DNA of 44,064 nucleotides from a virus (Duplodnaviria > Heunggongvirae > Uroviricota > Caudoviricetes). This document shows positions 1 to 26,904 of this stretch, piece after piece. The stretch is taken from the IMG/VR virus record IMGVR_UViG_2690316161_000025. One strand, given 5' to 3'. The notes under the pieces were generated by a model. It ran no database searches. It was not told where the DNA came from and worked only from the letters and a program-made list of their open reading frames with translations. Every line of letters begins with the position of its first letter. Positions within the stretch are counted from its first letter, which is position 1. A program made the translations under genes and the position numbers.

Positions 1-228
1 ATGTGTTCCAACGAAAAGGCCCGTGATTGGCATCGTGCGGATGTGATTGCGGGACTTAAGAAAAGAAAGCTCTCTTTATCAGCTCTTTCCCGGCAGTTTG
101 GTTATGCGCCAACTACATTAGCTAATGCGCTAGAACGACACTGGCCAAAGGGTGAGCAGATTATTGCTAACGCCTTAGAAACTAAACCGGAAGTAATCTG
201 GCCTAGCCGATATCAAGCAGGTGAGTAA
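1..228 (+). CDS. ner: Ner, small DNA-binding negative regulator of early transcription (75 aa)
   Basis: [40 protein letters not shown]...; sits immediately upstream of the transposase gene as in Mu. Confidence 0.9.
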
Positions 229-229
229 C

Positions 230-2221
230 ATGGAACTTTGGGTATCACCGAAAGAGTGTGCGAATCTTCCTGGTTTGCCGAAAACATCGGCTGGTGTGAT
301 TTATGTTGCTAAAAAGCAAGGATGGCAAAACCGCACTAGAGCAGGTGTCAAAGGTGGTAAAGCAATTGAATACAATGCGAACTCTTTACCTGTTGAAGCG
401 AAAGCGGCGTTATTGCTGAGACAAGGAGAGATTGAAACAAGCCTGGGGTATTTTGAAATCGCCCGCCCCACGCTGGAAGCCCATGATTATGATCGTGAGG
501 CACTGTGGAGCAAATGGGATAACGCCAGCGATTCCCAGCGCAGACTTGCTGAAAAATGGTTGCCTGCGGTTCAGGCTGCAGACGAAATGCTGAACCAGGG
601 GATTTCAACGAAAACGGCTTTTGCGACCGTTGCAGGGCATTACCAGGTCAGCGCATCCACTTTGCGGGACAAGTATTACCAGGTACAGAAGTTTGCGAAG
701 CCTGACTGGGCGGCTGCACTTGTTGATGGACGTGGAGCATCCCGTCGCAATGTTCACAAAAGTGAATTTGACGAGGATGCCTGGCAGTTTCTGATTGCAG
801 ATTATCTGCGACCGGAAAAACCCGCTTTCCGCAAATGTTATGAGCGTCTGGAACTGGCAGCCCGCGAGCATGGCTGGAGTATTCCCTCCCGTGCCACGGC
901 CTTTCGCCGGATTCAGCAACTGGACGAGGCAATGGTTGTTGCCTGTCGTGAAGGTGAACATGCACTGATGCATCTGATACCGGCACAGCAGCGAACTGTG
1001 GAACACCTGGACGCCATGCAGTGGATCAACGGCGACGGTTATCTGCATAACGTCTTTGTACGCTGGTTTAACGGTGATGTGATCCGTCCGAAAACATGGT
1101 TCTGGCAGGATGTGAAAACCCGAAAAATTCTGGGCTGGCGCTGCGATGTGAGCGAGAACATTGATTCAATTCGCCTCTCGTTCATGGATGTTGTGACTCG
1201 CTACGGTATCCCGGAGGATTTTCACATCACCATTGATAACACCCGTGGTGCTGCGAATAAATGGCTGACGGGAGGCGCGCCCAATCGCTACCGCTTTAAG
1301 GTAAAAGAGGACGATCCAAAAGGGCTGTTTTTACTGATGGGTGCGAAAATGCACTGGACAAGCGTTGTTGCTGGTAAAGGCTGGGGCCAGGCAAAACCTG
1401 TTGAACGTGCTTTCGGTGTTGGTGGGCTTGAGGAATACGTTGATAAGCATCCGGCACTGGCTGGCGCATATACGGGGCCTAATCCGCAGGCAAAACCTGA
1501 TAACTATGGCGACCGCGCTGTTGATGCAGAGCTGTTTCTGAAAACCCTTGCCGAAGGTGTGGCGATGTTCAATGCCAGAACAGGCCGTGAAACAGAAATG
1601 TGCGGAGGCAAACTTTCGTTTGATGACGTTTTTGAGCGTGAATACGCCAGAACGATTGTGCGTAAGCCTACCGAAGAGCAAAAACGGATGCTGTTACTGC
1701 CTGCCGAGGCGGTGAACGTTTCACGCAAAGGCGAGTTTACGCTTAAAGTTGGCGGCTCCCTTAAAGGCGCGAAAAACGTTTATTACAACATGGCGTTAAT
1801 GAATGCCGGAGTGAAAAAAGTTGTGGTCAGATTTGATCCACAGCAGTTACACAGCACGGTTTATTGCTACACCCTGGACGGTCGGTTTATCTGTGAAGCG
1901 GAATGTCTGGCACCTGTTGCGTTTAATGATGCTGCGGCAGGTCGTGAATATCGCCGCCGCCAGAAACAACTGAAATCTGCGACGAAAGCAGCGATTAAGG
2001 CACAGAAACAAATGGATGCACTGGAAGTGGCAGAGCTGCTGCCGCAGATAGCCGAACCTGAAGCACCAGAATCACGAATTGTCGGCATTTTCCGGCCTTC
2101 CGGTAATACGGAACGAGTGAAGAATCAGGAGCGTGATGATGAATACGAAACTGAGCGTGATGAATATCTGAATCATTCGCTGGATATTCTGGAACAGAAC
2201 AGACGTAAAAAAGCCATTTAA
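230..2221 (+). CDS. A: MuA DDE transposase (663 aa)
   Basis: ATG at 230 one base after ner stop, SD aggtgag upstream; 663-aa product [17 protein letters not shown]...; size and position match MuA. Confidence 0.95.
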
Positions 2222-2259
2222 TTAACGTTTAAACAAAATTTAATTACGAGGTTATTCAG

Positions 2260-3198
2260 ATGAATATTTCCGATATTCGCGCAGGACTGCGCACGCTTGT
2301 AGAAAATGAAGAAACCACCTTTAAACAAATTGCTCTTGAGAGCGGACTTTCTACCGGAACTATCAGTAGTTTTATCAATGATAAGTACAACGGGGATAAC
2401 GAGCGTGTTTCACAAATGCTGCAACGCTGGCTGGAAAAATATCATGCAGTTGCAGAACTACCTGAACCGCCCCGCTTTGTGGAAACGCAGACGGTAAAAC
2501 AAATCTGGACAAGTATGCGTTTTGCCAGCCTGACTGAAAGTATTGCTGTTGTATGTGGCAATCCTGGTGTGGGCAAAACCGAAGCGGCCCGTGAATATCG
2601 CCGCACCAATAACAATGTCTGGATGATCACCATTACGCCATCCTGTGCCAGCGTTCTGGAATGTCTTACTGAACTGGCGTTTGAGCTGGGAATGAATGAC
2701 GCACCACGCCGTAAAGGGCCGCTCTCCCGCGCCCTGCGACGTCGCCTTGAAGGTACACAGGGGCTGGTTATCATCGACGAAGCTGATCATCTTGGTGCCG
2801 AAGTTCTGGAAGAACTCCGCCTGTTACAGGAATCAACCCGTATTGGCCTTGTGCTGATGGGAAATCACCGGGTTTATTCAAATATGACGGGGGGTAACAG
2901 AACGGTTGAATTTGCCCGTCTGTTTTCCCGTATTGCAAAGCGCACTGCAATTAATAAAACCAAAAAAGCCGATGTAAAAGCTATTGCGGATGCCTGGCAG
3001 ATTAACGGCGAAAAAGAACTGGAGTTATTACAGCAGATTGCGCAGAAACCAGGTGCGCTTCGCATTCTGAATCATTCACTTCGCCTTGCAGCCATGACGG
3101 CTCACGGTAAAGGTGAGCGTGTTAACGAAGATTATCTGCGTCAGGCTTTCCGTGAATTAGACCTGGACGTTGATATTTCAACGCTGCTGCGTAATTAA
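2260..3198 (+). CDS. B: MuB ATP-dependent target DNA activator (AAA+ ATPase, 312 aa)
   Basis: 312-aa ORF with Walker A GNPGVGKT, directly downstream of A; SD acgagg upstream. Confidence 0.95.
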   Translation: MNISDIRAGLRTLVENEETTFKQIALESGLSTGTISSFINDKYNGDNERVSQMLQRWLEKYHAVAELPEPPRFVETQTVKQIWTSMRFASLTESIAVVCGNPGVGKTEAAREYRRTNNNVWMITITPSCASVLECLTELAFELGMNDAPRRKGPLSRALRRRLEGTQGLVIIDEADHLGAEVLEELRLLQESTRIGLVLMGNHRVYSNMTGGNRTVEFARLFSRIAKRTAINKTKKADVKAIADAWQINGEKELELLQQIAQKPGALRILNHSLRLAAMTAHGKGERVNEDYLRQAFRELDLDVDISTLLRN

Positions 3199-19327: not shown

Positions 19328-19738
19328 ATGTCAGGCACTTCGCTTAATTCACAATGGCTGGACACTTCTCGCATCACTTGCACGGCGATTATTAAATGCC
19401 TTCGTCCGGTCTACCGCCGCGCCGGAATCGCCTTTACACGTGGCGAAAACACCGTGGAAGTCACCGAAGAACAACTGGCGATCATTCGTGCCGACAGCGT
19501 GCTGTCTGTGGTATCTGCATCGTCAGCAGAAACGCTCGCTGAGGCTGGGGGGCTGGACGTTCTGGGTGTGGGCGATCTGAACGCCCGTATCCGTGCGACC
19601 GTTGCCGGTCTGGATAAGGCAAACCCGGAACACTTTACCGCAGGAGGAGAACCCAAAGTGAAAGCCCTCAGTGCGGCGCTGGGGGAACCGGTAAGCAGCG
19701 CGCAAATCAAAGCGGCGCTGGCTGAGGCGGATGCATGA
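19328..19738 (+). CDS. Head-associated hypothetical protein (136 aa)
   Basis: ATG 19328 ten nt after SD aaggaggag. Confidence 0.55.
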   Translation: MSGTSLNSQWLDTSRITCTAIIKCLRPVYRRAGIAFTRGENTVEVTEEQLAIIRADSVLSVVSASSAETLAEAGGLDVLGVGDLNARIRATVAGLDKANPEHFTAGGEPKVKALSAALGEPVSSAQIKAALAEADA

Positions 19739-20160
19739 ATTACGCGACGGTAAATGACCTGTGCGCCCGCTATACACGTACGCGGCTGGATATTCTCACC
19801 CGCCCTAAAACAGCGGACGGGCAGCCGGATGATGCCGTGGCAGAACAGGCACTGGCAGATGCTTCGGCCTTTATTGATGGCTATCTCGCCGCGCGCTTTG
19901 TTCTGCCGCTTACCGTCGTCCCCTCACTGCTGAAACGGCAGTGTTGCGTGGTGGCCTGGTTTTATCTGAATGAATCACAACCCACCGAGCAGATCACCGC
20001 TGCCTACAGGGACACAGTGCGCTGGCTGGAACAGGTGCGCGATGGCAAAACAGATCCCGGCGTGGAAAGCAGGACGGCAGCCTCGCCGGATGGTGAAAAC
20101 CTTGTGCAGGTGCAGTCTGACGCGCCGGTCTTCTCACGAAAACAGAAGGGGTTTATCTGA
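19735..20160 (+). CDS. J: Head-tail connector/completion protein candidate (Mu J)
   Basis: 141-aa ORF, ATGA overlap with upstream gene. Confidence 0.6.
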   Translation: MNYATVNDLCARYTRTRLDILTRPKTADGQPDDAVAEQALADASAFIDGYLAARFVLPLTVVPSLLKRQCCVVAWFYLNESQPTEQITAAYRDTVRWLEQVRDGKTDPGVESRTAASPDGENLVQVQSDAPVFSRKQKGFI

Positions 20161-20708
20161 TGCTGGAAGAAACCGAAGCCGCACTGCTGGCGCGCGTTCG
20201 TGAGTTGTTTGGGGCAACCCTGCGGCAGGTGGAACCCCTTACCGGCACATGGACTAACGAGGATGTGCACCGTCTCTTTCTGGCCCCTCCATCGGTATTT
20301 CTGGCATGGATGGGCTGTGGTGAGGGGCGTACGCGTCGGGAAGTTGAAAGTCGCTGGGCATTTTTTGTCGTGGCGGAGTTGCTGAACGGGGAACCGGTAA
20401 ACCGGCCCGGTATTTATCAGATTGTGGAGCGACTGATTGCCGGTGTTAACGGTCAGACGTTTGGCCCGACCACCGGGATGAGACTGACGCAGGTCAGAAA
20501 TCTTTGTGACGACAACCGTATTAATGCCGGTGTGGTGCTTTACGGCGTTCTGTTCAGTGGCACTACCCCGCTGCCGTCCGTGGTGGACATGGATTCGCTG
20601 GATGATTACGAGCGTCACTGGCAGACCTGGAAATTCCCGGACGAAACCCCGGAATTTGCCGCACATATCAATGTGAATCAGGAAAAGGATCATGATGCTG
20701 AAAATTAA
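20160..20708 (+). CDS. K: Mu K (gp37) virion protein, 182 aa
   Basis: ORF in conserved position between J and sheath; start overlaps J stop. Confidence 0.6.
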   Translation: MLEETEAALLARVRELFGATLRQVEPLTGTWTNEDVHRLFLAPPSVFLAWMGCGEGRTRREVESRWAFFVVAELLNGEPVNRPGIYQIVERLIAGVNGQTFGPTTGMRLTQVRNLCDDNRINAGVVLYGVLFSGTTPLPSVVDMDSLDDYERHWQTWKFPDETPEFAAHINVNQEKDHDAEN

Positions 20709-20898
20709 ACCCGCAGCGGGAAAAGCCATCCGTGACCCGCTCACGATGAAATTACTGGCTCCGGAGGGAGAAGAAAAGCCCCGTAACAGTTTCTGGATAC
20801 GTCGCCTTGCAGCCGGTGATGTGGTTGAAGTCGGGAGCACCGAAAACACGGCGGATGATACCGACGCTGCGCCGAAAAAACGGAGTAAATCGAAATGA
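20692..20898 (+). CDS. Small hypothetical protein (68 aa) upstream of sheath
   Basis: ORF with SD aggaaaagga; basic C-terminus. Confidence 0.5.
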
Positions 20899-22382
20899 GC
20901 GATATTTCATTTAACGCGATCCCGTCAGATGTTCGCGTTCCTCTGACGTATATCGAATTTGATAACAGCAATGCCGTCAGCGGAACACCGGCTCCCCGCC
21001 AGCGCGTGCTGATGTTCGGGCAAAGCGGAAGTAAAGCCAGTGCCGCACCGAACGTGCCTGTCCGTATCCGTTCCGGCTCACAGGCCAGTGCGGCGTTTGG
21101 TCAGGGTTCCATGCTGGCACTGATGGCAGATGCATTCCTGAACGCTAACCGCGTGGCGGAGCTGTGGTGTATCCCGCAGGGAAACGGCACCGGTAATGCT
21201 GCTGTCGGTGAAATCTCACTGTCAGGAACGGCAGGCGAAAACGGCTCGCTTGTGACCTATATTGCCGGTCAGCGACTGGCGGTATCCGTCGCAGCAGGTA
21301 CAAAAGGGGCTGCGCTGGCTGACCTGCTGGTTGCCCGAATCAAAGGCCAGCCGGATTTACCGGTGACGGCAGAAGTTCGCGCAGACAGCGGAGATGATGA
21401 CACCTATGCAGATGTGGTTCTGAGTGCAAAATTTACGGGTGCATTATCTGCCGTGGATGTGCGCTGGAACTATTACGCGGGTGAAACCACCCCTTACGGG
21501 ATTATCACGGCATTCAAAGCCGCCTCCGGTAAAAATGGCAACCCGGATATCAGCGCAAGTATCGCGGGAATGGGCGATCTGCAATACAAATATATTGTGA
21601 TGCCCTATACCGATGAACCGAACCTGAATCTGTTACGCACTGAATTGCAGGAACGCTGGGGACCGGTCAATCAGGCTGATGGCTTTGCTGTGACAGTGCT
21701 GTCCGGCACGTATGGGGATATTTCCACGTTTGGTGTCAGTCGTAATGATCATCTGATCTCCTGTATGGGGATTGCCGGTGCACCGGAACCGTCATATCTG
21801 TACGCCGCCACACTGTGTGCCGTTGCCAGCCAGGCGCTTTCCATCGACCCGGCGCGTCCTCTCCAGACGCTGACGTTGCCCGGAAGAATGCCGCCTGCGG
21901 TGGGGGATCGTTTCACCTGGTCAGAACGTAATGCGCTGCTGTTTGACGGCATCTCCACGTTTAACGTGAATGATGGTGGTGAAATGCAGATTGAACGCAT
22001 GATCACGATGTACCGCACAAACAAGTACGGTGACAGTGATCCGTCTTATCTGAACGTGAATACCATCGCCACGCTGAGTTATCTGCGTTATTCACTGCGA
22101 ACCCGCATCACGCAGAAATTCCCGAACTACAAGCTGGCAAGTGATGGCACCCGCTTTGCCACCGGTCAGGCCGTGGTGACGCCATCCGTGATCAAAACGG
22201 AGCTGCTGGCACTGTTTGAAGAATGGGAAAACGCCGGACTGGTCGAGGATTTCGACACGTTCAAAGAGGAGCTGTATGTGGCACGTAACAAGGACGACAA
22301 AGACCGTCTTGATGTGCTTTGCGGCCCGAATCTGATTAACCAGTTCCGCATTTTCGCGGCACAAGTTCAGTTCATTCTGTAA
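20895..22382 (+). CDS. L: Contractile tail sheath protein (Mu L), 495 aa
   Basis: 495-aa ORF immediately upstream of the tube gene. Confidence 0.9.
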
Positions 22383-22391
22383 GGAGCATTT

Positions 22392-22748
22392 ATGGCTGGA
22401 AATCAGCGTCAGGGGGTGGCGTTCATCCGTGTCAATGGCATGGAGCTTGAAACGATGGAAGGTGCCTCCTTCACGCCTTCCGGTATCACCCGTGAAGAAG
22501 TGACCGGCTCGCGGGTTTATGGCTGGAAAGGTAAACCACGTGCCGCAAAGCTGGAATGCAAAATTCCGGGCGGTGGTGATATCGGTCTGGATGAAATCAT
22601 CGGCTGGGAAAACATCACGGCAGAGTTTCAGGCAGACACCGGTGAAACCTGGATGATGGCGAATGCCTGGCAGGCAGATGAACCGAAAAACGACGGCGGC
22701 GAAATTTCGCTGGTACTGATGGCAAAACAAAGCAAACGCATTGCATAA
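22392..22748 (+). CDS. M: Tail tube protein (Mu M), 118 aa
   Basis: 118-aa ORF after sheath, SD taaggagc. Confidence 0.85.
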   Translation: MAGNQRQGVAFIRVNGMELETMEGASFTPSGITREEVTGSRVYGWKGKPRAAKLECKIPGGGDIGLDEIIGWENITAEFQADTGETWMMANAWQADEPKNDGGEISLVLMAKQSKRIA

Positions 22749-22757
22749 GGGGAAACA

Positions 22758-23192
22758 ATGGACGAAATGAATTTAGGTCCTGAAGCACAGGAACTGCATG
22801 ACAGCATTGTGGCAGAAATTCAGTCCGGCGTGCTGAAACTGAAAGACGGCCTGCCGTTCGGCACCGGTGACGAGACTGAAATGCAGTATGACGTGACGCT
22901 GCGTGAACTGACCGCAGGCGATCTGATTGATGCCCAGGCGGCTGCTGAAAAGCTGGTAATGAGCAAGGAAGGCCCGGTGCTGGTCAGTTCCCCGTCCCGG
23001 ATGGGACTGGAAATGCTGCGCCGACAGATTGCCAGCGTGGGTTGCATCAAAGGCCCGTTATCGCTGGCGCTGATGCGCAAGCTGTCTGTTGATGACTTCC
23101 AGCGTCTGTCGCTGGCTACAGAAATGTACGACATGGCTGTGGCGGCATCGCTGACACAAGAACGGGGGCGAGTGGCTGCGGTGCCGGAATGA
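22758..23192 (+). CDS. Tail assembly chaperone candidate (gp41), 144 aa
   Basis: Acidic 144-aa ORF between tube and tape-measure genes. Confidence 0.55.
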   Translation: MDEMNLGPEAQELHDSIVAEIQSGVLKLKDGLPFGTGDETEMQYDVTLRELTAGDLIDAQAAAEKLVMSKEGPVLVSSPSRMGLEMLRRQIASVGCIKGPLSLALMRKLSVDDFQRLSLATEMYDMAVAASLTQERGRVAAVPE

Positions 23193-23336
23193 TATTGAGA
23201 AAGCGGCGACAGCGATTGGCGTTATTCTGAAAAGTGGCCCGGAATGGGCCTTATCCCTCCCGCTGTCCCGCTTTTTCCGGCACTGCCAGCAGGCTAAAAC
23301 CCTCTCTCAATATCACCGTTAAATCAGGAAATCTCT

Positions 23337-25412
23337 ATGACCGGGAAACGCTTAAAGGCGTCTGTCATTATTGATCTTAATGGCAATCTTTCCCGGCGTT
23401 CCCGCCAGTATTCGAACCAGATAAACGCCCTGTCCCGTAGCGGACAAAGTTCCCTTCGTGCCCTGCGTATGGAGGTTGTGCGCGTTTCTGGTGCCATTGA
23501 CAGAATGGGTTCACTGTCAACCCGTACATTCCGAATGCTGTCAGCCGGGGCGCTGGGTATCGCTGGTGTGGGTTACACCGCCAATAAACTGTTTATTGGT
23601 GCAGCCGCCCAGCGTGAGCAGCAAATTATCGCCATGAACTCGCTGTATCACGGCGATAAGGTCAGAGCGCAGGCCATGATGGCCTGGGCAAAGCAGAACG
23701 CGAAGGACACCACGTGGGGGCTGAGTGGTGTTCTGGATGAGATCCGTTCGTCGAAAGGCTTCGGCATGACGGATGAACAGACGAAACAGTTCATCACCAT
23801 GTTGCAGGATCAGGGGGCCATGCACGGCTGGGATTTACCCACTGCACAGGGTGCCTCACTGCAACTGAAACAGATGTTTGCCCGCCAGCAAATCACGGCG
23901 GCGGATGCCAACCTGCTGACCGGTTACGGTATTAACGTTTACCAGACGCTGGCGGATGCACTGGGTAAAGAAGACGTTAAGGATATCCGCAAACAAGGTG
24001 AAAAAGGCAAGCTGGGTCTGAAATCCATTCTGACGGTATTCAGAACGCTGTCAGAACAGTCAAAAGGTGCACAGGCCAGTGCGATGAACTCCTGGGACGG
24101 GATGTTCGCCCAGATGGAAGCTAACCTGCTTGAATTTCGCATAAAGGTGGCAAACAGCGGCCCCTTTGAAGAAATCAAGAACGAGATGCGCCGGGTGCTT
24201 AACTGGCACGACATGGCGGATAAATCCGGGGAACTTGACGCACTGGCAGAAAACATTGGTCAGAAATTTCTGACCACGTTCAGAACGGTAAAAATCGCGG
24301 CGCAGGAATTATGGCGCTGGCTGAAACCGGGTAAAGATGCGCTGGCATGGGTTGACCAGAATATTGTCAGCCTGAAAAAACTGGCTGCTGTTCTGGTGTC
24401 TGTCTGGCTTGCCAATAAAGCCCTGAGAGCAGGCTGGGCCGTGGCAAAACCCTCATGGCAGGTTGCCAGTTATCCGTTTAAAACCGGGCGTCGTATGTGG
24501 CGCTGGATGCGAAACCGCAAACGTGGGCAGGCAGGTCTGCCGGTCCCGGATGCCATGACGTCTGAGACGCTGTTGCAGGGTATCGGCATTCAGCGTGTGT
24601 TTGTCATCAACTGGCCCCGTGGATTTGGTGGCTACGGGAGTGGCGGCGGTCGTCGCGGACGGAGCGGCGGAAGAATGGCCCCGCTGTTACCCCGCCAGCC
24701 GTTATTGCTGTCCGGGCCACAGCCGCTGGCATTACCTGCACCACGCCCTGTACTGGCATTACCCCCACCCGGCGTACCGGTAACAGCACGGCCTGCACCA
24801 TTACCTTTACCCGGTAAATCCGGTCTTCTGAGCAGGCTTGCAGGCAGTGCTGCCGGGCAACTGGTTACGGGAACGGTCGGAAAGCTGGCTGATGCCGGGC
24901 GTGCTGTTGGCGGGTGGTTTTCCGGTATCGGAAACAAACTTGCAGGCAGTGCGATCGGTCGGGTTGTGACAAAAGGTGCCGGGGCGCTGGGCTGGATGGG
25001 GAAAGGTGCCGGTCGTGTGTTGTCACGTCTGGGTGGCCCAGTAATGGGGGCACTCCAGCTTGCCCCCGTCCTGATGGATGAGCAGGCGTCAACCCATGAA
25101 AAAGCAGGCGCAATTGGCAGTACAGCCGGTGCATGGCTCGGCGGTGCCGTTGGCAGCCTTGCCGGACCGCTGGGTACGGTTGCCGGTGCCACGCTGGGCA
25201 GTGTCGCCGGGGAGTATCTGGGCGGTTTTGTAACCGACCTGTATCAGAAATGGACGGCCCCGGATAAGGAACCGCAGGAACAAAAAGTGAATGCGGAAGC
25301 CTCGCTGCGCGTCGAACTTGCCGAGGGGTTACGTCTGACCAGTTCCCGCGTCACCGAGGACGGTATGGGGCTGAATATTTACGCGGGCGATAACTACATT
25401 ACAGGCTGGTAA
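23337..25412 (+). CDS. Y: Tail tape measure protein (Mu Y), 691 aa
   Basis: Long ORF with helical N-terminal two-thirds and Gly/Ala/Pro-rich C-terminal repeats (GxxxG-like). Confidence 0.85.
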
Positions 25413-25416
25413 AACC

Positions 25417-26904
25417 ATGTTTGAAGATGCTTTAAATGCCGTTAATGCTGTCCGGGATAAAATCAGCGGTGGTAAGAAAACAACCGGCAAAGGCACGTTT
25501 CGTAACGTGCCGTTTCTCGTCATCGAGGAGCAAAAACAGGCTGGCGGACGTCGCCTGGTTAAACGCGAGTACCCGTTACGTGATACCGGCGGCGTCAATG
25601 ACCTGGGGAAAAAGCTTCGCTCCCGTACATTCAGCGCCTGCATTCTGAACAGCAACGCAGAAACAGCCAGAGATGAAGCGGGTGCGCTGATGGATGCTCT
25701 TGATGCTCCGGGTAGCGGTGAGCTGGTACATCCTGATTTCGGCACTGTGGACGTCATGGTGGATTCATGGGAATGCCGCACTAAAGCGGATGAACTGAAT
25801 TATTACGCGTTCACCGTTACCGTTTATCCGTCGTTGCAGGATACTGCCCCGGACTCAGAGACAGACACCAGTGCAGCCGTACCGGCACAGGCCGTTGCTG
25901 TAACCGGTTCTCTGGGAGATACGCTGTCCTCTGTCTGGCAGACCGTAAAAGATGGCACTGCGGCGGCAACCGCCGTGATGGAAGCTGTAACCGGTGTCAT
26001 CGATGATATCAGTGATGCGGTGGACAATCTGGGGGTTACGCAGACTGTCAGCGGTCTGATGGGATCGCTTTCTGCGATGAAAGGCTCTGTGACCAGCCTG
26101 ATTAACCAGCCTGCCATGCTGGCCTCCTCGCTGATGGGGGCGCTGTCCGGCGTTTCATCGTTATGCGATACCCGGACAGCATTTTCCACATGGAACCGTC
26201 TGGCGCAGCGATTCGAACGTCGCCATGCCGCCACCGCAGGCAGACAGGGGACAATCACAACCTCGTACAACAGTCCGGTTGCAGAAAAAAATATTGCCAC
26301 ACTGAACTACGTCATGCTGGCAGCAGCACAGACATACCGGGCGGAGGCAGCAAGCCAGGCACTGACTGCGGCACTGGATTTCAGTCGCCGGATGGATAAT
26401 GCCGCCCGTGCACCTGTACTGGATGCCCCGTCCACCACAACCGGCACAGCCAGCGGGGCCAGCAGCACATCCGCTACCGTCACACAGGGACAGTTACAGT
26501 TAACTGCCATAACCCCGGACGGCGGCTTTTCACAGGTATCCTTTTCAGACAGTGGTACAGCCACGCCCCCGGTATTTGAAAGTGTGTCCGATATCGGAAA
26601 AACAGCCGCCATGCTGGGGGCAGCGCTGGATACCGTCATTCTGACGGCATCTGAGCAGGGCTTTTCGACAGACAGCGTTCAGCTTACGCAACTGCGTCTG
26701 CTGGTTGTTGCCGACCTGGAAAAACGCGGGCTGCAACTGGCAGGCAGTGAAACGCACCGCCTGCCGGAGACGATGCCTGCAATGGTGGCTCTGTACCGTT
26801 ACACAGGAAACAGCCGGAACTGGCAACGGCTGGCCCGCAGGAACGGTATCAGCAACCCGTTGTTTGTTCCCGGTGGTGTCAGTATTGAGGTGATTAATGA
26901 GTAA
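25417..26904 (+). CDS. N: DNA circularisation protein (Mu N), 495 aa
   Basis: 495-aa ORF following tape measure; Ser/Thr/Ala-rich. Confidence 0.75.

Follow-up and report, generated by a model that had tools for sequence, protein, structure and literature searches.

A variable basic spacer and a conserved, predicted glycine-zipper hairpin in the C-terminal third of a Mu/D108-type tape measure protein

The C-terminal third of the tape measure protein gp42 in a Mu/D108-type prophage appears to join a variable basic spacer to a strictly conserved glycine-zipper hairpin. The chance that this hairpin works on the host membrane when DNA is injected is judged to be about even. The gene was studied in a window of 44,064 nt, which is the whole stretch of DNA that was analysed. 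An initial annotation had marked nt 24595-25260 as a Gly/Ala/Pro-rich region that may interact with the membrane or form a channel. These coordinates are right, though not codon-aligned, and correspond to aa 420-642. The stretch is composed of four distinct parts and is not one low-complexity tract. The feature is ordinary and was known already as the C-terminal part of the Mu/D108 tape measure protein. The elements that were mapped in and around it are as follows.

23337..25412, + strand: gp42 tape measure protein gene of a Mu/D108-type prophage, 691 aa, assigned from the ORF listing, Pfam TMP_3, and PDB 9ki1 chain g
23652..24137, + strand: TMP_3 domain, aa 106-267, a Pfam match and the sole part that AlphaFold2 models confidently
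24357..24443, + strand: hydrophobic helix, aa 341-369, broken by Lys/Arg (Kyte-Doolittle 19-aa maximum 1.29), outside the stretch first marked
24591..24617, + strand: conserved motif, aa 419-427, consensus VQxVFVTNWP (alignment A2, 14 sequences), which begins the flagged region
24618..24674, + strand: Gly/Arg-rich patch, aa 428-446 (composition, alignment)
24675..24815, + strand: segment rich in Pro and Leu, aa 447-493, where Pro reaches 35% per 40 aa and coil is predicted
24762..24947, + strand: 62-aa (186-nt) module in single copy, a Pro-rich part followed by a segment that runs to LADAGR (protein alignment)
24816..25019, + strand: cationic amphipathic Gly/Ala helices, aa 494-561, with an internal repeat 34 aa apart (repeat score, hydrophobic moment)
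25104..25232, + strand: double glycine zipper, a predicted helix-Pro-helix hairpin, aa 590-632 (GxxxG excess, invariant columns, Pfam, AlphaFold2 fragment)
25233..25409, + strand: acidic/charged C-terminal tail, aa 633-691, whose last 17 residues (25359-25409) match the modelled part of Mu gp42
24632..25192, - strand: spurious 186-aa antisense ORF within a 203-codon stop-free run, 24635-25243 (synonymous-shuffle test; without Pfam match)

Judged by its sequence matches, the product of the ORF at 23337..25412 is the tape measure protein gp42 (Mup42) of a D108/Mu-type prophage. At the nucleotide level, the gene is 99.6% identical to gene 42 of phage D108 and 97.8% identical to that of Mu. The product has about 98% amino acid identity to PDB 9ki1 chain g (“Probable tape measure protein”, Mu gp42) and matches phrog_973, “tail length tape measure protein” (E=1e-226). 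It also matches Pfam TMP_3 (PF20155) with 54.4 bits against a cutoff of 41. The original call of a tape measure protein thus holds. The label “Y product” that was given with it is doubtful, because the GenBank annotation of phage PhiR68_1 gives the letter Y to the Mup41 chaperone and not to Mup42. Sheath (20895-22382), tube (22392-22748), Gp41_Mu chaperone (22758-23192), tape measure (23337-25412), and DNA_circ_N protein (25417-26904) genes were found in a row. The tape measure gene therefore sits 3' of the sheath and tube genes, between those for the tail assembly chaperone and the baseplate hub, and relatives have an identical order. In the full-length AlphaFold2 model, pLDDT is 86-93 across about aa 100-250, everything outside the TMP_3 core is below 50, and the mean is 49; the model is usable as a secondary-structure hint only. 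A full-length PDB sequence search returned, apart from Mu gp42, only near-matches to CHCHD2/10 (E 0.025-0.8). These are compositional and were treated as low-complexity similarity.

The position of the protein in the virion can be inferred from Mu. Cryo-EM of Mu has located a gp42 trimer in the tail-tube lumen, of which only residues 674-690 were built, plugged between the hub gp44 and the spike gp45 (PMC11915804). Mu gp42 is ejected upon contraction, and the tube lumen is strongly negative (PMC11915804). By near-identity to Mu gp42 (PDB 9ki1), the protein described here lies in the tube lumen as well, with its C-terminus bound to hub and spike. None of 18 positions in the C-terminal tail vary among close relatives.

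The Gly/Ala/Pro richness that was first reported is borne out. Residues 420-642 contain 21.1% G, 13.5% A, and 9.4% P. Together these make up 43.9%, compared with 21.8% in the remaining protein, and no other 223-aa segment in any ORF of 200 aa or more across the window has a higher value. The 17-residue string quoted in the initial annotation lies at aa 429-445. The repeated small-residue spacing that was also reported is present in strict GxxxG form and is local to aa 588-632, where 8 pairs were observed against 3.2±1.3 in composition-preserving shuffles (p=0.0014). In the same kind of shuffles, GxxxG is not enriched in aa 494-577 (6 against 4.8±1.7), and the looser [GAS]xxx[GAS] spacing is enriched nowhere. 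When G-G spacings of 1-11 were compared, spacing 4 alone stood out (z=2.9). The described switch from helical to low-complexity sequence is seen only in part. Coil is predicted at aa 396-510, but helices resume at 511-640 in the AlphaFold2 model, where confidence is low.

The zipper is made up of G594/G598/G602/G606, the turn proline P611, and G617/G621/G625/G629. The eight glycines and P611 do not vary even in relatives with about 25% identity, and an alignment of 13 zipper sequences has nine invariant columns. Zipper glycines also account for seven of the 16 invariant columns in a full-length alignment of 14 sequences (61% down to 18% identity). Each of the 13 zipper segments has a match to Gly-zipper_Omp of Pfam (PF13488) at E<=0.1, with a best E of 6.7e-7. 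“Glycine zipper 2TM” (PF05433) is matched by 7/13, and the P22 ejection protein gp7 family weakly by 3/13. The zipper of gp42 here scores 18.2 bits against Gly-zipper_Omp in the full-length protein and 24.7 bits as a fragment, where the gathering score is 25. AlphaFold2 predicts a helix at 586-607, a turn at 608-610, and a helix at 611-635 for the zipper fragment (mean pLDDT about 68). A Foldseek search of this fragment against the PDB gave no significant match, and the top hit was the glycine-zipper lipoprotein SlyB (E=1.6). A single-sequence homologue search with aa 559-691 returned, among the 70 candidates scored, only fragments of the same protein. No other stretch of gp42 is as hydrophobic as the zipper, which has the longest run without charge (36 aa) and the lowest windowed hydrophobicity sum. 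The zipper segment alone is common to a Pasteurella phage tape measure protein and other PHROG families, and it is also found in an Acinetobacter phage “tail tip lysozyme” with a Phage_lysozyme2 domain.

Residues 428-589, upstream of the zipper, appear from the alignments to be a basic Gly/Ala/Pro spacer that is free to vary in sequence and length, including in the copy number of the 62-aa module. This part of the protein is the most variable among close relatives. In 109-120 of them, 24-47% of its positions vary, compared with 7-9% in the zipper. From the NWP motif to the zipper, the spacer is 72-162 aa long in relatives. At the Gly/Arg-rich patch, 26-32% of positions are variable among close relatives, and the alignment places a basic Gly/Lys/Arg patch of different sequence there in relatives. 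The Pro/Leu-rich segment is mostly missing in more distant relatives. The initial annotation had looked to conservation among relatives, and here the two elements divide. The zipper is conserved in position and pattern, while the Gly/Ala/Pro spacer is conserved in neither length nor sequence.

The 62-aa module, which contributes to the length variation, aligns to aa 476-534, with every insertion falling after aa 489. It is present as a single copy here, and one or two more copies are found in close E. coli prophages. Close relatives with products of 766 aa and 814 aa have the module amplified in tandem, and this amplification adds 76 or 124 aa to the spacer. The 766-aa form is encoded in GCA_009681965.1, and the 814-aa form in GCA_902708925.2, NZ_CP107134.1, and NZ_CP184007.1. 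Tandem Repeats Finder detected an array with a 186-nt period in two relatives (2.6 copies at 93% in L001 and 1.8 copies at 82% in L002). The array is confined to these two, and none was found in nt 24300-25450 of the window. A different repeat is present in the amphipathic helices. Residues 495-525 and 529-559 align with a local score of 63, against 26.6±5.4 in shuffles, and the repeat can be seen in the DNA as a 32-nt repeat (D2) with a spacing of 102 nt. The hydrophobic moment is 0.32 (p=0.015) over aa 498-535 and 0.52 (p<0.001) over aa 539-562. Net charge is +9 over aa 494-579 and about +25 over aa 370-579, and basic charge is consistently kept in the spacers of relatives.

A canonical transmembrane helix was not found in gp42 by a simple Hessa-scale sum, where the scale is approximate and the best 19-mer gave +5.5 kcal/mol. 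On the same approximate scale, the minimum 19-aa sum is +2.6 to +8.2 in 12/13 Mu-type relatives, and it is at or below 2 in 71/112 of the others, where the median relative position is 0.67. At the site of the aa 341-369 helix, most TMP_3 relatives have an uncharged stretch of 50-65 aa that resembles a transmembrane hairpin (relative position about 0.65). Among 99 full-length TMP_3 relatives, a canonical hydrophobic 19-mer is absent in 13/15 that bear the zipper and present in 61/84 that lack it (Fisher p=2e-5). This association may reflect a single event, because the zipper-bearing proteins are essentially one clade and the comparison is phylogenetically confounded. Both kinds of relative are found in the same Mu-type contractile-tail gene module. 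It is possible, though doubtful, that in the Mu lineage the inner membrane is breached by the C-terminal zipper hairpin, which replaced the usual transmembrane hairpin at mid-protein, and that the copy number of the 62-aa module (690, 766, 814 aa) tunes tail length or periplasmic reach.

The zipper could instead be an assembly or packing element only, without a membrane role. Six helices from three hairpins would then be packed in the lumen of the tube initiator and hub, where they would nucleate the complex of tape measure protein, hub, and spike. The distance from the zipper to the C-terminal hub plug is about 40 residues, and stable baseplate assembly in Mu needs the tape measure protein, without which the spike binds weakly (PMC11915804). 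The zipper is also not hydrophobic enough for a canonical transmembrane helix. Tight helix packing predicts invariant glycines, and these are equally expected if the zipper merely packs helices inside a narrow lumen. However, the Pfam glycine-zipper families matched by all 13 segments are membrane-associated, a like motif is needed for the membrane translocation of Tde1 (PMC10240207), and the longest uncharged stretch of a protein that is ejected at infection is the zipper itself. A packing role alone is considered unlikely, and packing and membrane roles are not mutually exclusive. It is less likely still that the entire Gly/Ala/Pro-rich third is a low-constraint spacer whose sole function is to add length to a tail-length ruler. 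The range of spacer lengths, the residues gained by module amplification, and the variability among close relatives all favor such a ruler. In addition, 690 aa at 1.5 Å give 1035 Å, which is roughly equal to the 1050 Å of 30 rings at 35 Å, so that most of the chain may count toward length. This explanation fails at aa 590-632, where the glycine pattern and the turn proline stay unchanged down to about 25% identity. The spacer itself is not entirely free, because its basic charge and amphipathic helices are kept.

The long antisense ORFs of this region had been explained as a by-product of its composition, and the shuffles agree with that explanation. When codons were shuffled synonymously, with the protein sequence kept fixed and the longest antisense open run scored, the run of 203 codons compared with 163±37 (p=0.21). 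The main open antisense frame can have stops only opposite Tyr, His, or Gln codons, and these residues make up 10/223 in the flagged region and 38/419 upstream. A real overlapping gene, for example the 186-aa ORF at 24632-25192, is exceedingly improbable. The 203-codon run is also open in Mu, SfMu, and PhiR68_1, and distant relatives have long antisense runs too. However, the synonymous shuffles yield runs of comparable length, the sense codons needed for stops in that frame are rare here, no Pfam match was found for the antisense ORFs, and the openness in Mu, SfMu, and PhiR68_1 only mirrors near-identical DNA across the tail module. SfMu and PhiR68_1 differ from the gene here at 3-4 of 669 nt in aa 420-642 and at 86-102 nt in aa 1-419. 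Constraint on synonymous sites, which would hint at an overlapping gene, was considered and rejected. In a sliding profile, identity is 97-100% along the whole tail module, and what stands out is a divergent patch at 23700-24300, within the TMP_3 domain.

It would be plausible for the zipper to insert into the membrane or form a channel, by analogy with membrane proteins that carry glycine zippers, with Tde1 of the T6SS, and with the tape measure protein of T4. Such a role seems reasonable for the 43-aa hairpin and perhaps for the cationic amphipathic helices, not for all 223 residues. The spacer could provide ruler length, line the negatively charged lumen, and, after ejection, lie on the anionic membrane surface. 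When the sheath contracts and the spike is lost, the C-terminal end of gp42 would exit the tube first. The moderately hydrophobic zipper hairpins of the three chains could then insert into the inner membrane, where they would pack face-to-face via their glycine ridges and help to open a conduit for DNA. The hairpin of the Mu lineage would in this way take the role of the mid-protein hydrophobic hairpin in most related tape measure proteins. Against this membrane reading are the lack of a canonical transmembrane helix by hydrophobicity sum, a Pfam score for the zipper that is below gathering, low AlphaFold2 confidence (pLDDT <50 in the full-length model and about 68 in the fragment), and a fold search that was not significant.

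The annotation of the gene is little changed, since gp42 of Mu/D108 was already recognised as a tape measure protein, and segments that are weakly hydrophobic or carry a glycine zipper had been noted in such proteins earlier. What is gained is a finer map of the part of gp42 that cryo-EM could not resolve. The map separates 43 strictly constrained residues from a variable spacer of roughly 160 residues. These 43 residues are mutation targets for asking how Mu DNA crosses the inner membrane. The natural series of 690, 766, and 814 aa is a ready-made test of whether the spacer counts toward the tail-length ruler.

The gp42 of Mu and D108 is essentially the same protein, and its neighborhood of sheath, tube, gp41 chaperone, gp42, gp43, and gp44 is shared. 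The protein here differs from all 690-aa relatives by one additional codon (E212). Glycine-zipper membrane modules (PF13488, PF05433; SlyB, PDB 7ojf) likewise have two G-x3-G-x3-G-x3-G helices and a short turn. SlyB-type proteins are resident outer-membrane lipoproteins, whereas the zipper of gp42 is inside a 691-aa virion protein that is ejected. Tde1 is a T6SS DNase effector whose N-terminal glycine zipper is required for membrane permeabilisation and for translocation across the inner membrane of the target; this zipper is similar to the C-terminal part of tape measure proteins from Burkholderia/Paraburkholderia (PMC10240207). Tde1 and gp42 are both delivered by contractile machines, and in both, repeated GxxxG motifs overlap a segment of weak hydrophobicity. 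The two are likened by motif, and the function in gp42 is putative. The T4 tape measure protein gp29 has been proposed to form an inner-membrane conduit (bioRxiv 10.64898/2026.03.06.709160). T4 gp29 and the siphophage tape measure proteins T5 pb2 and JBD30 gp46 (PMC11445458) are ejected, are proposed to form a trans-envelope or inner-membrane conduit, and have a C-terminus anchored at the distal tube or hub. In these proteins, amphipathic helical parts co-operate with a hydrophobic segment, a likeness to gp42 that is one of arrangement. In T4 gp29, a transmembrane segment is predicted at aa 207-246, ahead of a helical-bundle domain, whereas the Mu-type protein, without a canonical transmembrane segment, has its zipper hairpin near the C-terminus.

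The region at 24595-25260 encodes residues 420-642 of the tape measure protein gp42.

23337-25412, plus strand: gp42 tape measure gene, 691 aa

At the DNA level this gene shares 99.6% identity with D108 gene 42, 97.8% with Mu, and 94.7% with SfMu. Residues 106-267 of the protein match Pfam TMP_3 (54.4 bits, cutoff 41). The protein also matches PHROG 973 ("tail length tape measure protein") and aligns end to end with PDB 9ki1 chain g, the "Probable tape measure protein" of Mu. Its neighbors are Mu tail genes, with the sheath, tube, and Gp41_Mu chaperone upstream and a DNA_circ_N protein and the hub downstream. The initial annotation called the protein the Y product, which is probably a misnomer; in phage PhiR68_1 (PV340575.1, locus L011, 5984-6418) the letter Y is given to the Mup41 chaperone and Mup42 has no letter. 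Near aa 212 (about 23970-23972), gp42 reads ALGKEDVKD where D108 has ALGKDVKD, and this added residue accounts for the length of 691 aa. That length is absent among the 120 closest database proteins, which are 690, 694, 766, or 814 aa long.

The window contains a Mu-type prophage, of which positions 1-3000 are an early region (HTH protein, transposase, and AAA ATPase) matched in 89 of 5426 complete E. coli genomes. Since the window begins within this early region, a host flank, if any, must be at the right end. A patch at 23700-24300, in the TMP_3 domain of gp42, is only 80-93% identical to SfMu and PhiR68_1, while the remaining tail module is 97-100% identical to them; it is a mosaic segment within the tape measure gene. 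A further mosaic block is found downstream of the major head gene, at 19500-20700, where identity is 53-87% to SfMu and 97-100% to PhiR68_1. The 145-nt gap between gp41 (22758-23192) and gp42 (23337) is spanned by a 56-codon open frame on the plus strand (23152-23319), in the +1 frame relative to gp41. It may be a frameshift extension of the kind usual for such chaperones of tail assembly, and a 57-aa gene is called at the matching place in a distant relative (locus L005, 4835-5008). Beyond about 30 kb of the window, toward the right end, G+C falls to 42-50%.

The Gly/Ala/Pro richness of the region was confirmed. Residues 420-642 contain 21.1% Gly, 13.5% Ala, and 9.4% Pro, a sum of 43.9% compared with 21.8% in the rest of gp42, and no 223-aa window of the other long ORFs in the 44 kb has an equal value. 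However, the composition is uneven, and the region consists of several distinct segments. The 17-residue string originally quoted for it is aa 429-445.

Segments of gp42 in and after the region (plus strand)
aa 419-427: conserved NWP motif, at the start of the region
aa 428-446: Gly/Arg patch, Gly-rich and basic
aa 447-493: Pro/Leu-rich segment, Pro up to 35% per 40 aa
aa 494-561: Gly/Ala-rich segment with amphipathic helices
aa 562-589: linker, with an acidic LMDEQ motif at its end
aa 590-632: uncharged run, the double glycine zipper
aa 633-691: charged tail after the uncharged run

A little upstream of the region is an Arg/Trp-rich stretch, aa 379-398 (24471-24530), that resembles cationic peptides binding membrane interfaces; relatives keep its charge and not its sequence.

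The repeated small-residue spacing that had been proposed for the whole region holds in one part of it. Strict GxxxG pairs exceed composition-preserving shuffles in aa 588-632 only (8 compared with 3.2 ± 1.3, p = 0.0014). In aa 494-577 they do not, and small-xxx-small spacing is at expectation everywhere. A true internal duplication is present in aa 494-561, with copies 34 aa apart (alignment score 63 compared with 26.6 ± 5.4 in shuffles), and it appears in the DNA as a repeat spaced 102 nt.

The long antisense ORFs are artefacts of composition, as was first suggested. The two longest stop-free antisense runs of the gp42 gene (203 and 161 codons) are both inside the region, where G+C is 72% at first and 63% at second codon positions. 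When synonymous codons were permuted with the protein held fixed, the longest antisense run was 163 ± 37 codons, so that a run of 203 is unremarkable (p = 0.21). In the main open antisense frame, stops are possible only opposite Tyr, His, or Gln codons, and these residues number 10 of 223 in the region compared with 38 of 419 upstream. Antisense and alternative-frame ORFs of the region had no Pfam match, and long antisense runs are likewise found in relatives of quite different sequence.

Conservation divides the region into a strictly conserved zipper and, upstream of it, a Gly/Ala/Pro-rich spacer that is variable and modularly expanded. With HMMER, 1137 matches were obtained from 1.84 billion representative proteins. 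The Mu-type set comprises 14 full-length proteins including the query, each with at least 8 GxxxG pairs per 45-aa window at a relative position of 0.80-0.86, and identity to the query ranges from 61% down to 18%. Seven of the 16 invariant columns in the whole-protein alignment are zipper glycines. In an alignment of the zipper alone (13 proteins), G594, G598, G602, G606, P611, G617, G621, G625, and G629 are invariant; these are two four-glycine zippers with a proline turn between them. The distance from the NWP motif to the zipper is 72-162 aa, and the spacer aligns largely to gaps. Only basic character is common to the spacers (K+R 9-25%), with D+E at 2-8% in 12 of 13 relatives and 11% in P0171; P0202, whose alignment is doubtful, has 14%. 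Thus, the conservation of length and composition on which the original reading was staked is found in the zipper (position, length, and pattern) and not in the spacer. The close relatives vary in the same manner.

Variable positions among all 120 close relatives (without length variants in brackets)
Gly/Arg patch: 32% (26%)
Pro-rich segment: 47% (28%)
Gly/Ala segment: 34% (24%)
Linker: 32% (29%)
Zipper: 9% (7%)
Last 18 residues, the hub plug: 0% (0%)

Of these 120 proteins, eleven have 766 aa and one has 814. Their extra residues are all inserted after aa 489 and are added copies of a 62-aa module that the window has once; in this module, LAGSAAxQxVTGxxGxLADAGRxV... comes after a Pro-rich part.

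24762-24947, plus strand: single-copy 62-aa module, aa 476-537

The corresponding 186-nt tandem array has 2.6 copies at 93% identity in locus L001 (7450-7935) and 1.8 copies at 82% in L002 (7490-7825). Both variants are within complete Mu tail modules, and the sizes of neighboring genes are unchanged. The region is carried by 44 of 5426 complete E. coli genomes, and in at least two (NZ_CP107134.1 and NZ_CP184007.1) it spans 1038 nt instead of 666, an addition of 372 nt or 124 aa.

Confidence in the full-length AlphaFold2 model is confined to the TMP_3 core. At low confidence, aa 396-510 are coil and helices are placed at 511-535, 539-562, 566-579, 586-608, and 611-640. The zipper fragment, modeled with its own alignment, is predicted as a helix (586-607), a turn, and a second helix (611-635) with a pLDDT of about 68. 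Every one of the 13 zipper segments matched Pfam Gly-zipper_Omp, with E values down to 6.7e-7; the segment encoded in the window scored 24.7 bits (gathering score 25). Seven of them matched "Glycine zipper 2TM", and three weakly matched the P22 ejection protein gp7. Foldseek gave no significant match for the fragment, and its top entry was the glycine-zipper lipoprotein SlyB. No uncharged run of gp42 is longer than that of the zipper (36 aa), which also contains the lowest 19-residue hydrophobicity sum of the protein; at +5.5 kcal/mol (Hessa scale), this sum does not indicate a canonical transmembrane helix. Residues 370-579 have a net charge of +25, and helices 498-535 and 539-562 are significantly amphipathic.

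In the Mu virion structure, gp42 is a trimer in the tube lumen and only residues 674-690 are modeled, lodged between the gp44 hub and the gp45 spike (PMC11915804); the region is thus outside the structurally resolved part. The lumen is strongly negative, the tube has 30 rings, each rising about 35 Å, and on contraction the tape measure protein and the DNA are lost (PMC11915804). With the C-terminus at the hub, the zipper would likely be first out of the tube once the spike is released. The zipper hairpins, glycine-ridged and moderately hydrophobic, could then insert into the inner membrane and oligomerise there. The cationic amphipathic helices may bind the anionic membrane surface, or the negative lumen before ejection, and the Pro-rich segment could serve as an extended spacer. 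In the main rival reading, six helices are packed tightly in the narrow lumen at tail initiation, and this packing is the zipper's sole function. The packing and membrane roles are compatible. From this analysis, the membrane-interacting role initially suggested for the region appears reasonable for 43 of its 223 residues. The initial observation is correct but ordinary; the protein was already known and the phage is well studied. Two points are mildly new: the natural 690/766/814-aa series, and the definition of the invariant double-zipper hairpin as a target for mutation.

Other TMP_3 proteins differ from gp42. Most of those outside the Mu-type set have an uncharged stretch of 50-65 aa directly after the TMP_3 homology, at a relative position of about 0.65, and in 71 of 112 the hydrophobicity sum of at least one 19-mer does not exceed 2. 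At the equivalent position Mu has a shorter hydrophobic helix (aa 341-369), broken by Lys and Arg. In a comparison of 99 full-length relatives, a canonical hydrophobic segment was seldom found together with the zipper; it is lacking in 13 zipper-bearers and present in 2, compared with 23 and 61 of the others (Fisher p = 2e-5). Since the zipper-bearing proteins form what is essentially one clade, a single evolutionary event may account for the pattern. The Mu-type contractile tail module is home to both zipper-bearing and zipper-less proteins. Taken alone, the zipper is also found in a tape measure protein of a Pasteurella phage and in several further PHROG families, as well as in a "tail tip lysozyme" of an Acinetobacter phage, a protein that has a Phage_lysozyme2 domain. 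In T4, the tape measure protein is reported to form an inner-membrane conduit by means of a transmembrane segment and an amphipathic helical bundle (2026 preprint, bioRxiv 10.64898/2026.03.06.709160). The T6SS effector Tde1 needs a glycine zipper for membrane permeabilisation and translocation, and the same study notes that tape measure proteins of Burkholderia have similar zippers in their C-terminal region (PMC10240207).
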